From the NCBI GenBank assembly GCA_910587325.1, contig CAJUKB010000002.1:32349-96348 (forward strand): a DNA stretch of 64,000 bases, written 5' to 3'. A program made the position numbers and the translations under genes. This document shows, one piece after another, positions 16,386 through 60,464 of this stretch. Every line of letters starts with the position of its first letter. Position 1 is the stretch's first letter. Source of the DNA: an uncultured Bacilli bacterium. Lineage in GTDB: Bacteria; Bacillota_I; Bacilli_A; RF39; UBA660. The notes beneath the pieces were generated by a model. That model did no database searches and was not told where the DNA came from. It was given only the letters and a program-made list of their open reading frames with translations.

Positions 16386-17230
16386 TTATTCTTCTTTTAG
16401 CGTAGTAATTTCTTCTAATGATAAGTTAGTATATTTCATTATTTTATCTAAATCTTCACCCTCAAGTAACATTTTCCTAGCAGTTTTTATTGCATTTTCT
16501 TTTGCTCCTTCTTCTTTGGCAATAGAAATATCCGAATTATAACACTTACGCTTGTCTTCCTCTTCACTCATGTACTCCCGAAATCTTACATCTTTGTTAA
16601 TAATCTCTACATTCATTTTGTAATCCTCCACCCATTTATCTTTTTTGCTTAACTTTTCTATGTCATCAAGTCCTAAATACAACATAATCAAGTATTTGTA
16701 TTTCCCTATTTCTTTTTCATTTTTAGAATACCAAAACTCCATGATTTTGTCCATATTGTATTATAAGATTATAAAATTTTTTACAAACTTATGTTGTCTT
16801 TTATCTTGAATATAATATTTTCTTACAATCTCATTATCTTCTTTTCCTAGTCCATAAGTGAAATTAATTTGAATAATTTGCATGTCTTCTGTATATTTTT
16901 CTCCCACTAAAGTATAATGCGAATAATTATCACATTGGTAAGCTGTATTTCTACTATGTAAATAATCTTTTTTACATGTATTCATTTCTACATCAATTTT
17001 TCCTTGATTGGTGGTAAGGAGAATATCTAGATTTTTTCTTCGGACACTCAAATTGCTTGTATTTCGTTCTACATTTTTCTTACCATTTCTTTTATAGAAA
17101 CACCAAGTGCCATTTCTAAAATCTTTTTTAAAATTTCTTCATTTTTTTCGTTAAGTAAGACTTCTTTAAAAGCTCTATCGTTTCTACAAGTATATAATTT
17201 ATCATTTGTTTCAGTAGTTATTTTTCTCAC
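16386..17230 (-). pseudogene. Rpn/YhgA-like PD-(D/E)XK recombination-promoting nuclease / putative transposase, disrupted
   Basis: The gene survives as three fragments. The N-terminal piece (about 17230-17077, DRAFKEVLLNEKNEEILKKILEMALG) ends in TAG and a frameshift follows. The nuclease core (17051-16761, IDVEMN...IIQINF) ends in an in-frame TAA. The same frame then continues (YN-MDKIMEFWY...) to the typical C-terminal helix repeat (AKEEGAKENAIKTARKML..GEDLDKIMKYTNLSLEEI). Confidence 0.7.
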
Positions 17231-17335
17231 CTCCCTATTCTTATATATAAACTGCGAATTGGTGATTTCCTTTTTTTGAAGGTGAAATAATTTAAAAAAA
17301 CTTTTATTGATTTTCTCTGTTTTTTATAATAACTT

Positions 17336-24251: not shown

Positions 24252-24320
24252 AATATCCTCCTAATTTATTCTATGTAAATTATGTTTGAAATAGGAGAAT
24301 TTTATGCAAAAGAAAAAAAT

Positions 24321-24683
24321 TTACCTTTTCCTATAACCATTTTCCTTTTTAATTATTTCTCGAATTAGTTCTTTTTCTCCTATTTTATTAATTACTTTAG
24401 TAACATTTTCATAAAGACACATCCATTTTTCTCTTCTTTGAAATTCAAACTCAATTTGTTTTTGTTCTTTTTCTGTAGGTACATAAAAATCTTCTTTTTT
24501 TAAAGTTTCTTCGCTAGCATCATATAAATATCCATCTATATCCCTAAAAACACAATGATAATGTTTAATTTTTTTATCTATTAATAGAATTACATTTGGA
24601 AAATATGTTTGTACTATTTTTACTAATTCATAACAGCCACCATTTAAATACGCTTCCCTTGCTTCTTCTATATTGCCTTTACT
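24321..24683 (-). pseudogene. Start-less 120-codon open frame (probable 5'-decayed gene remnant)
   Basis: The frame is stop-free from the TGA at 24684-24686 to the TAA at 24321-24323, in AT-rich DNA. There is no in-frame ATG, GTG or TTG until codon 86. The upstream frames carry closely spaced stops. Confidence 0.3.
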
Positions 24684-24727
24684 TCATCTATATTAATACT
24701 ATAACAAAAAATATTTTAAGAAAAGCC

Positions 24728-24757
24728 AAAAAAAAATTAGTCTATTTCTAAACTAAT
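24728..24757 (-). terminator. Intrinsic terminator ending the ribosomal supercluster
   Basis: On the minus strand, ATTAGTTTA-GAAA-TAGACTAAT overlaps the rplQ stop codon. T9 follows. Confidence 0.7.
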
Positions 24758-38768: not shown

Positions 38769-38901
38769 ATTTTATTGTCTCCTTTCGCCTATATCTAGTA
38801 TAGACTAGCTCCGTACAAATTCCCTGAATTATAGATTTTGTTTTAACAACTCAACCTAGTGTATCAGCAACCTCGCACATCCAAGCCGTCATACATATTT
38901 C

Positions 38902-38930
38902 ATTTTAACACTATATAATATGAAATGCAA
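38902..38930 (-). promoter_or_regulatory. Sigma-A type promoter of the S10 operon (about 125-nt leader)
   Basis: On the minus strand, TTGCAT (38930-38925), 17 nt, TAAAAT (38907-38902), with an A/T-rich upstream tract. The leader contains CTAGT-CTAT-ACTAG and other helices. Confidence 0.55.
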
Positions 38931-39163
38931 GCAGAAATTTTGCCTATTTTCCGTTCCTTTCATTTAGTAACATTCAAAAAGATATACAAGTAAATCTATT
39001 TTTATTAAACATAAAAGGAAGTTAAAGATATATTCACTAGCAAAAAACAATTAAAGTCAGTTATCAAATGCAAGTTTAACTTTTATAAAGTGCTTGCCAA
39101 AATCAAGTTTTGGAAATATTAACTTTTTTTAACAAGCAATTCTTATTACAGAAAAATCACTCA

Positions 39164-39203
39164 TAATAAAAACAACCAATGTTAACTAACGCCATTTTGG
39201 TTG
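39164..39203 (-). terminator. Intrinsic terminator after the 160-aa membrane protein gene
   Basis: On the minus strand, CAACCAAAATG...CATTGGTTG (2-nt bulge) followed by TTTTTATTAT. Confidence 0.55.
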
Positions 39204-39230
39204 CTTATAAAAAATAGTTATGATTATTCT

Positions 39231-59030: not shown

Positions 59031-59111
59031 ATTATTCACCATATCTATTATACTAAAGTTTATCATAATTTGAAACCATAACCATATACATTACTAGAGG
59101 TGAAATTTTAA

Positions 59112-59492
59112 ATGAATGGTAGTTACTATCAAAATCCAACATTTCCAGGAGCAAATGACAATATAGGTTTTAACGGAAATTATACAACACAGAGTACTCC
59201 TCCAGGAAATATAAGCTATAATCCTGATATAGATATGGAACAAAGTTACATTGAAAACATTTTAAGACTAAATAAAGGGCAAAGAGTTAGAGCTTACGTA
59301 TCTTATCCGGATTCTGTAGAATGGCGTGATAGAGTTTATAATGGCATTATTGAAGAAGCAGGAAAAGACCACTTAATTATTAGTGATCCTAATACAGGAA
59401 AATGGTATTTAATTCGTATGATTTACTTAGATTATGTTGAATTTGATGAACGTATTCACTATAGTCATGCTTATTCAGAAAAAACTTTTTAG
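59112..59492 (+). CDS. gerQ: Spore coat protein GerQ family
   Basis: QSYIENILRLNKG..V..YVS......W....Y.GIIEEAGKDHLIISDPNTGKWYLIRMIYLDYVEF matches the GerQ core. Confidence 0.8.
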   Translation: MNGSYYQNPTFPGANDNIGFNGNYTTQSTPPGNISYNPDIDMEQSYIENILRLNKGQRVRAYVSYPDSVEWRDRVYNGIIEEAGKDHLIISDPNTGKWYLIRMIYLDYVEFDERIHYSHAYSEKTF

Positions 59493-59520
59493 ACAAGAAC
59501 AGCGTTTCTTGTTTTTCTTT
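59493..59520 (+). terminator. Intrinsic terminator after gerQ
   Basis: ACAAGAA-CAGCGT-TTCTTGT directly after the TAG stop, followed by TTTTCTTT. Confidence 0.7.
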
Positions 59521-59554
59521 ACTTCTATAAAAAAGTATATTAAACTTATTTTAA

Positions 59555-59791
59555 GCGAGACACATAAATAGTGCTTGCTATTTAGAACATTCACCATCTT
59601 AACAGATGGTGTCTTTTAATGTTTCTCAAGAACCAAAACCCGTCTGAATTTAATCATCTAGTTAAATAGTATCAAGAGAATGATTATAACAATCAAGAGT
59701 AAAATAAGAAATTCTTTTTTGGGAGTCTAGCCGCTACCTCCGTAAAATTATTTTTTAAAGTAGCAAACACAACCTGTTTTTTGCATCTCGC
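59555..59791 (-). ncRNA. Candidate structured small RNA (family unknown; 6S-like topology possible)
   Basis: The predicted transcription start at 59791 opens a 10-bp helix (GCGAGAUGCA with UGUGUCUCGC, 59564-59555). A 13-bp helix follows (GUGUUUGCUA-C-UUU with AAAUAGCAAGCAC). Three G-U pairs would be A-C mismatches on the other strand. An internal extended hairpin spans 59584-59626. No plausible ORF, and no downstream gene on this strand. Confidence 0.4.
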
Positions 59792-59797
59792 AAGAAC

Positions 59798-59826
59798 ACT
59801 ATATAACATGAGAAAATGAAATGCAA
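59798..59826 (-). promoter_or_regulatory. Orphan sigma-A type promoter driving the candidate sRNA
   Basis: On the minus strand, TTGCAT (59826-59821), 17 nt, TATAGT (59803-59798). It shares TTGCATTTCAT and ATATAGTGTT strings with the S10 operon promoter region. Confidence 0.5.
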
Positions 59827-59862
59827 ATCACTAATTTTCCAAATTGGAGTTCCAAAATAACA

Positions 59863-59878
59863 AATTGAAGCTTCAATT
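59863..59878. promoter_or_regulatory. Perfect 16-bp palindrome upstream of the sRNA promoter (possible operator/activator site)
   Basis: AATTGAAG|CTTCAATT, centred about 80 bp upstream of the predicted start. CAAATTG recurs 21 bp away (59840-59846 and 59861-59867). Confidence 0.3.
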
Positions 59879-59921
59879 CCCCAAAAGAAAAGCTAAATTT
59901 ATTAAAATTGAATATAACTTT

Positions 59922-59951
59922 AACAAAATTAGCAAAATTTTAATTTTTGCT
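59922..59951 (-). terminator. Intrinsic terminator after the MBL-fold hydrolase gene
   Basis: On the minus strand, AGCAAAA-ATTAAAA-TTTTGCT followed by AATTTTGTT. Confidence 0.5.
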
Positions 59952-59966
59952 TATTTTTTTATTTTA

Positions 59967-60464
59967 TTAAAAATAATATTTAAATAATCTTTTTTCATTG
60001 CCTAACATAGAAGAAGGTCCATGTCCCGGATAGATTTTTATATCATCTTCGTATTTTTCTATTTTCTCTAAACTCTCTTGCATTTCTTTTTCACTTCCTC
60101 CAGGTAAATCCATTCGTCCAATAGTTCCTTGAAATAAAAAGTCTCCTGTAAACATTATTTTTTCTTGTGGAAAATAAAAGGTTAGAGAATCCTTTGAATG
60201 TCCTGGTGTTTTTATTACTTCATAGAAAAACTCTTTTGTCTTTCCATTATGTTGTAAGCCATATTTTTCTTCAAAATAGGACAAAGATCCTACATGGTCA
60301 AAATGATTATGAGTTAGAAAAATACCAACTAACTCTAAGCCTTTTAACTCATTTTCTATTTTTTCGTATTCATCTCCGGGATCTATTAAAATCCCTTTAC
60401 TTTCCTTGCTTACTATATAACAATTTGCTTGCAAAGCTCCAACAGGAATACATTTGATTTGCAT
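59967..60464 (-). CDS. MBL-fold metallo-hydrolase (glyoxalase II-like)
   Basis: THNHFDHVG metal motif, later TPGHS and a GD...GR block. 165 aa. Confidence 0.8.
   Translation of the reverse strand: MQIKCIPVGALQANCYIVSKESKGILIDPGDEYEKIENELKGLELVGIFLTHNHFDHVGSLSYFEEKYGLQHNGKTKEFFYEVIKTPGHSKDSLTFYFPQEKIMFTGDFLFQGTIGRMDLPGGSEKEMQESLEKIEKYEDDIKIYPGHGPSSMLGNEKRLFKYYF

Follow-up and report, generated by a model that had tools for sequence, protein, structure and literature searches.

The element described here is best compared with MITEs, which are at most ~400 bp long, end in terminal inverted repeats, carry no transposase, fold stably as RNA, can hold promoters and are often placed at gene 3' ends (PMC3184786). 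Like bacterial MITEs and small mobile repeats such as the Correia elements, RUP and Chunjie (PMC3184786), it is AT-rich, non-coding, 237-400 nt long and bounded by imperfect terminal inverted repeats, and it further shares with them a very stable fold, promoter-like sites, a position at the 3' ends of convergent genes, a presence that differs between close relatives and an indirect sign of more than one copy. It departs from them, however, in that neither a target-site duplication beyond AA nor a cognate IS with matching ends was found, in a fold that is multi-branched and not one long hairpin, and in an inferred repeat that does not match the inverted-repeat unit and whose second copy is unseen.

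The element lies between gerQ and a small metallo-beta-lactamase-fold (MBL) gene in the window, i.e., the whole 64-kb stretch of DNA analysed here. An earlier note on this DNA had proposed that it is a candidate structured sRNA preceded by an orphan promoter. The reading that we favour, tentatively and with somewhat less than even confidence, is that of a MITE-like, non-coding insert that was acquired recently, is associated with a repeat and sits at an insertion hotspot; this reading takes in the variant in which the insert would be what is left of one end of some larger mobile element. Confidence is kept at this level because the indication of multiple copies is indirect, because neither a target-site duplication nor a cognate IS was found, and because the repeat does not match the inverted-repeat unit.

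The gerQ/MBL junction and its insert

In the window, gerQ and the MBL gene converge across a gap of 474 nt, and the sequence features that the earlier note had claimed for this gap were all found at their positions on direct reading of the sequence (Table 1).

Table 1. Features of the gerQ/MBL gap (window coordinates) and loci with other insertions at or near the junction
Feature	Position or loci	Strand	Basis or remark
gerQ	59112-59492	plus	Pfam Spore_GerQ, E = 9e-35
gerQ intrinsic terminator, ACAAGAA-CAGCGT-TTCTTGT, then T run	59493-59520	plus	sequence
Insert, ~400 nt	59521-59920		between gerQ and MBL terminators; boundaries approximate; relatives lack it
Candidate RNA segment as first defined, 237 nt, inverted-repeat ends	59555-59791	minus	MFE and background windows
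Closing-stem 3' arm (as DNA: left terminal inverted repeat)	59555-59590	minus	duplex scan
Extended hairpin, inner 7-bp stem 59592-59611	59584-59626	minus	fold and SNP at 59609
Minimal core with inferred identical second copy	59664-59730		contig end points, k-1 reasoning
Internal TGTTATAAT, perfect extended -10 motif, inside inferred repeated core	59683-59691	minus	read from sequence
Closing-stem 5' arm (as DNA: right terminal inverted repeat)	59755-59791	minus	duplex -27 to -28 kcal/mol
Promoter-like TTGCAT-17-TATAGT	59798-59826	minus	number of such sites in region equals shuffle expectation
Perfect 16-nt palindrome AATTGAAGCTTCAATT, upstream of promoter-like site	59863-59878		sequence; significance marginal
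AT-rich hairpin with U-rich tail, 3' of MBL stop codon; probable MBL terminator	59918-59951	minus	sequence, inverted-repeat pair
Small metallo-beta-lactamase-fold (MBL) gene	59967-60464	minus	convergent to gerQ
Junction inserts in related species	L003, L006, L008, L033, L049, L059, L066, L076, L080, L106		gene content varies
Strains with IS near MBL	L094-L099, L115, L116; IS itself in L097, L110-L114

Relatives of GerQ number in the thousands in uncultured gut Bacilli, and the locus was compared across 80 species-level loci, extended to 95 related loci (512 kb) for the homologue searches. More than 45 of the 80 have the MBL gene convergent to gerQ at a distance of only 3-70 nt, usually with one bidirectional terminator between the two. 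In the closest species, whose GerQ is 94% identical, the gap measures 64 nt, and in a contig with a gerQ of 92% DNA identity the gap is likewise short and the similarity to the window ends at the gerQ stop codon. By blastn (word size 7) and nhmmer, no homologue of the insert was detected in the 95 related loci, and outside the insert the 64-kb window likewise holds no similar sequence and no further copy. The insert was also unmatched by blastn in phage and plasmid collections, and exact-word scans of viral contigs (four) and of JGI metagenome contigs (two) gave no insert match, the species being probably absent from the JGI data since the best GerQ there is 76% identical. The motif GCGAGA...TCTCGC occurs at this site only and nowhere else in 627 kb of sequence. 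Given the short gaps of the relatives and the lack of homologues, the ~400 nt from ~59521 to ~59920 are therefore most simply taken as a recent lineage-specific insertion. Conservation in related genomes, whose absence the earlier note had named as a ground for refutation, is thus not seen at this locus, and the element is young, with all relatives examined lacking it here.

The same junction carries unrelated inserts of 230-2450 nt with various genes in ten related species. Separately, some strains of the window's own species have an IS1595-family element ~4-7 nt after the MBL stop codon (window ~59960), which is ~1.25 kb long and contains two ORFs, one of ~160-207 aa and one of 137-185 aa (PF12762); its ends read AAGTTGTGTTAAAC and AAGTTGTGTTAAACAT. 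The unrelated inserts and the IS1595-family element together therefore mark the junction as a recurrent insertion hotspot. A derivation of the insert from the IS1595-family element was considered and dropped, as the two have no similarity and their ends are unrelated. By way of side observation, amongst the genes in the inserts of the related species are one for an HTH protein and an ATPase-like ORF of ~430 aa, and in the IS1595-family element the first ORF is preceded by a ~150-nt 5' leader with two hairpins that are long and perfectly paired.

With respect to coding potential, the minus strand of the segment has no ORF of at least 8 codons with a Shine-Dalgarno sequence, and the plus strand has one weak 16-codon ORF. 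When the 16 open frames of 59540-59840 were compared as one query with 5.8 billion protein clusters, nothing was found at E <= 10; a tblastn comparison of the ORFs of the other species' junction inserts with the gap gave no match, and for a 38-aa ORF at 59693-59809 no called-gene record was found. On these results the insert is non-coding and holds no recognisable pseudogene.

Several further features of the surroundings may be recorded here. AAATTGRA-like words occur three times, near 59842, 59863 and 59905, with spacings of ~21 and ~42 nt; together with the palindrome AATTGAAGCTTCAATT they look like operator or iteron sites, though their statistics are marginal. A yitT-family gene is divergent from gerQ with only 45 nt between the two (59067-59111), so that at least one of their promoters must be located within the coding sequence next to it; if the insert gave rise to a read-through transcript, this would traverse the interval. 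The window holds large ribosomal-protein operons, yet no Rfam r-protein leader, riboswitch or tRNA at gathering score, and its long gaps of 460-580 nt between ORFs of at least 100 aa (16755-17335, 24252-24747 and 38769-39230) may hold small genes.

Fold, strand preference and transcription signals

The fold of the segment bears on an alternative that we regard as unlikely but still worth weighing, namely that of a lineage-specific minus-strand sRNA gene, possibly paralogous and ~240-300 nt long, which would be transcribed from the promoter-like site at 59826-59798 and act in trans or antisense to the gerQ 3' end. In line with such a gene, the fold exceeds chance in duplex, MFE and background-window comparisons alike. 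The closing stem consists of a 10-bp helix (59791-59782 with 59555-59564), two pairs of which are G-U, and a 13-bp helix (59770-59757 with 59583-59571) with one bulged C and one G-U pair. RNAfold recovers the 10-bp closing helix and the extended hairpin, and gives the 237-nt minus-strand segment an MFE of -61.3 kcal/mol (z = -3.86), with none of 200 shuffles being equally stable. Since the boundaries of the segment had been hand-picked, the gap was also scanned exhaustively for duplexes between all pairs of 40-nt windows lying 150-300 nt apart, and 240 dinucleotide shuffles were treated likewise; the best long-range duplex of the gap has -28.4 kcal/mol, a value reached by no shuffle (mean -19.9, best -28.1). 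By regression of MFE on GC across the 64-kb window, the element lies 3.2 SD below the energy expected for its GC content, and only one of 1276 background 237-nt windows attains its energy. On the minus strand, 59701-59937 is the single strongest fold outlier in all of the window, and it too lies within the gap. The predicted structure of 59555-59791 can hence be regarded as genuine and non-random.

Its shape is less simple than had been supposed. Both the MFE and the centroid structure are multi-branched, with five or six hairpins, and of the central helices CCAAAA/UUUUGG and GAAUUU/AAAUUC put forward in the earlier note, the complementary blocks are present but the helices themselves occur in neither structure. 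When the whole gap is folded, other pairings displace the closing stem, one of them joining the -35 region to the putative 5' end, and this loss of the stem on addition of the flanks counts against an sRNA gene.

As for the strand, the whole gap folds with z = -4.8 on the minus and z = -3.4 on the plus strand, which is in favour of an sRNA gene, and the plus strand of the 237-nt segment folds well too (z = -3.55). However, of the 22 kcal/mol by which the strands of the whole gap differ, 16 are already found in the shuffles (means -86 and -70 kcal/mol), so that most of the strand difference is compositional, and this part of the argument for an sRNA gene is weakened accordingly. As the earlier note had it, all three non-Watson-Crick pairs of the closing helices are G-U on the minus and A-C on the plus strand, which mildly favours pairing on the minus strand. 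Amongst strains that differ by 0.4-1.5% in the flanking genes, the only SNP of the element is G>A at 59609 (in 9 of the 10 contigs shown), by which a C-G pair of the hairpin becomes G-U in a minus-strand RNA and C-A in a plus-strand one. With 33%, the GC content of the element is above that of short intergenic gaps (18-25%) and also above the coding average (31%). Each of these observations speaks for an sRNA gene; the G-U pattern, the SNP and the GC content weakly favour a minus-strand RNA, from four sites on a strand that is G- and U-rich anyway, and the G-U pattern hints at selection on RNA.

The orphan promoter claimed for the minus strand is present as a string of letters, with TTGCAT at 59826-59821, TATAGT at 59803-59798, a spacer of 17 nt and a G at 59791, but the match is no better than chance: in this AT-rich region five promoter-like sites were found where 4.5 are expected from shuffles. 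The promoter tool's own alignment is TTTGCA-18-TATAGT, with 9 of 12 positions matching. That a plausible sigma-A-type promoter lies 7 nt upstream of the first paired base is what an sRNA gene would lead one to expect, and its chance frequency speaks against one. The internal motif TGTTATAAT suggests from its sequence that a shorter minus-strand transcript could begin near 59675. No minus-strand intrinsic terminator was found after the segment in 59300-59555, nor anywhere in the scan of 59300-60200, which is a further point against an sRNA gene; for lack of such a terminator, a transcript from 59791 would, unless processed, continue in antisense orientation through the gerQ terminator and into the gene itself. 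On the plus strand, the inner stem of the hairpin at 59584-59626 together with a T-rich tail scores as terminator-like.

No Rfam family was matched at gathering score in the whole window, and a search of 59400-60050 at E <= 10 with lax filters found no 6S, SRP, RNase P, tmRNA or riboswitch, the gap giving only weak chance matches to models of snoRNAs and miRNAs; with ARAGORN, 59400-60000 proved free of tRNA and tmRNA genes. The earlier failure to match 6S, SRP, RNase P or tmRNA by eye is borne out by these searches. The lack of an Rfam match and the absence of conservation at the locus in relatives both argue against an sRNA gene. Of the original proposal of a candidate structured sRNA, it holds that the segment is non-coding and unusually structured and that pairing on the minus strand is mildly favoured, and it is undercut by the missing terminator, by a locus that in relatives is without the element and by the place of the segment in a recent insert of which part seems to recur elsewhere.

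The layout of the segment had also been likened to 6S RNA, and a 6S-like regulatory RNA binding RNA polymerase is now a highly improbable explanation. In common with 6S RNA (RF00013) the element is non-coding, has a length near 200 nt and has paired 5' and 3' ends in its closing stem; beyond that the likeness was a first impression. In contrast to 6S RNA, it has no match to the covariance model even at E <= 10 with lax filters, its predicted five or six hairpins form no rod with a central bubble, sister lineages are without it at the locus, unlike a housekeeping RNA, and it shows neither a terminator nor a sign of processing. 6S RNA was therefore rejected, since it fails on each of the testable defining features (covariance model, rod fold and conservation at the locus).

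Lineage-specific multicopy sRNA families of Firmicutes such as LhrC have intrinsic terminators and are conserved within a genus. The element shares with them a promoter-like site of its own, an intergenic position and a possible paralogous copy, but differs in having no intrinsic terminator and no conservation that could be seen. That the promoter and a ~240-nt RNA would together form a lineage-restricted, multicopy, mobile structured sRNA whose fold is under selection, as the G-U pattern hints, is given a low probability.

Contig breaks and the inferred second copy

Independent information comes from population contigs. Look-ups of the exact proteins yielded 23 contigs with this GerQ and 21 with this MBL protein from at least 17 samples, and not one of these 44 short-read contigs (23 gerQ-side, 21 MBL-side) spans the element. 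The gerQ-side contigs break off at 59646 (a single contig), 59682 (Logan contigs of six independent samples), 59693, 59696 and 59718, and on the MBL side at 59676, 59701 and 59802, or run into the IS. In MAG GCA_950079075.1, two contigs that are 100% identical to the window over 3.6 and 3.8 kb remain unjoined despite an overlap of 43 nt (59676-59718).

Logan contigs that run into the multicopy IS stop ~k-1 = 30 nt inside it, and this k-1 rule was applied to the contig ends within the element. It places the left start of a repeat at 59653 (six contigs), 59664 (L082) or 59617 (L086), and its right end at 59730 (L093) or 59831 (L092); at an assumed k of 55 the ends of the MAG contigs give 59664 and 59730, in agreement with the values for k = 31. 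A fixed right and a strain-variable left boundary are what near-identical paralogues differing by few SNPs would give. From the contig end points and the k-1 rule, and thus from the behaviour of the assembly graph, we infer a second near-identical copy of part of the element, 67 nt at the least and in some strains 215 nt or more, which would reside in the same genome or in a constant companion. The repeat and the inverted-repeat unit do not coincide: in most strains the repeat covers the centre of the unit, and in one strain it extends 40 nt past the right terminal repeat. In that strain (repeat end at 59831) it takes in the promoter-like site and runs ~5 nt past it, as would be the case for a duplicated sRNA gene, which adds to the evidence for that alternative.

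Searches for the second copy itself in the window, in the 512 kb of related loci and in the viral and JGI metagenome scans retrieved none. Further ideas were tried and set aside, namely the far end of MAG contig 41 as the site of the second copy (its sequence is unrelated), a 13-nt identity between the 5' end of the element and the ribosome-binding region of rplI (chance level, E = 0.49) and a tandem duplication (the repeat boundary varies by strain). As an observation of its own, two MAGs of the species each have a contig whose first base is the same, 129 nt before rplI, and whose opening 55 nt (L117:1-55 and L118:1-55) differ from other strains (L115:4280-4340); by its sequence this appears to be a further systematic structural difference or repeat boundary, beyond the end of the window.

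The contig breaks also bear on whether the window itself is continuous. It is conceivable, but rather improbable, that its path across 59664-59730 joins two contigs via a short repeat and that the arms of the closing stem are the ends of a larger element, such as an island or transposon, with an interior that the window lacks; the 237-nt unit would then not be contiguous in most genomes. This would account for a junction that none of the 44 short-read contigs spans, for window-identical MAG contigs that stop inside the element with their 43-nt overlap, and for arms that are significantly complementary, like transposon ends. However, the hypothetical element would have to carry, near each of its ends, a direct repeat of between 67 and more than 200 nt, the strain-variable left boundary fits diverged paralogues better than the fixed boundary of an att site or a duplication, and the source assembly did bridge the region, for which, even with longer k-mers or read pairs, reads spanning the left flank, the core and the right flank would presumably have been needed.

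Long-distance 5'-3' pairing is typical of the hok-type and AapA1-type toxin mRNAs, and invertible switches typically show inverted repeats by a promoter as well as breaks in assemblies. As the element combines long-range 5'-3' pairing, inverted repeats, a promoter-like site and assembly breaks, one may think of an invertible promoter switch or of a type I toxin whose mRNA is locked by 5'-3' pairing, but both are very far from probable. The coding potential set out above, with no Shine-Dalgarno ORF reaching 8 codons on the minus strand and just the weak 16-codon ORF on the plus strand, argues against the toxin. Against the switch it can be said that contigs end in the middle of the element (59646-59718 and 59676-59802) instead of where the inverted repeats have their inner edges, that the break-point sequences are not inverted repeats of each other, and that a Pfam scan found no recombinase amongst the four neighbouring genes.

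The MITE-like reading and its implications

To return to the MITE-like insert, the element has terminal inverted repeats in the form of imperfect arms of ~35 nt, does not exceed ~400 bp, carries neither a transposase nor another gene, and is present or absent between close relatives. As regards multiple copies, the sign is indirect: none of the 44 contigs spans the element, their ends are those to be expected from an exact repeat 67-215 nt long, and no copy was retrieved. A target-site duplication was not found, the flanks of 59555-59791 sharing only AA; CAAGAAC is present three times (59494, 59627 and 59791), yet no two of these sites flank the unit as a pair. The G-U pattern of the closing helices and of the SNP, with its hint of selection on RNA, and a GC content above that of coding DNA and of short intergenic gaps also count against the MITE-like reading. 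Nor was a cognate IS with matching ends found at this locus, the ends of the IS1595-family element being unrelated.

If the element is a MITE-like insert, it would have arrived at the gerQ/MBL junction by transposition or recombination, and its arrival would have split an ancestral common bidirectional terminator region into two gene-specific terminators. The present gerQ terminator (59493-59520) is similar to the common bidirectional terminator of relatives (L002 and L007). The inverted repeats would then primarily be features of the DNA, and the stable RNA fold would be the by-product usual for palindromic elements of this kind. The promoter-like site, if active, would give rise to a transcript antisense toward the gerQ 3' end.

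The element ties to no known RNA family and is of modest interest unless a second copy and a transcript are found. The consistent contig breaks flag a structural feature that the current MAGs of this species leave unresolved. If the MITE reading is true, the element would add another case of a small non-coding insert to a recombination hotspot of an uncultured gut Bacilli lineage, and it would call for caution in that strong folding and paired ends in AT-rich intergenic DNA may stem from mobile inverted repeats. Should the second copy and a transcript be found, in turn, the locus, as a structured RNA module that bears a promoter and duplicates, would offer a compact example of sRNA genes arising from mobile DNA.
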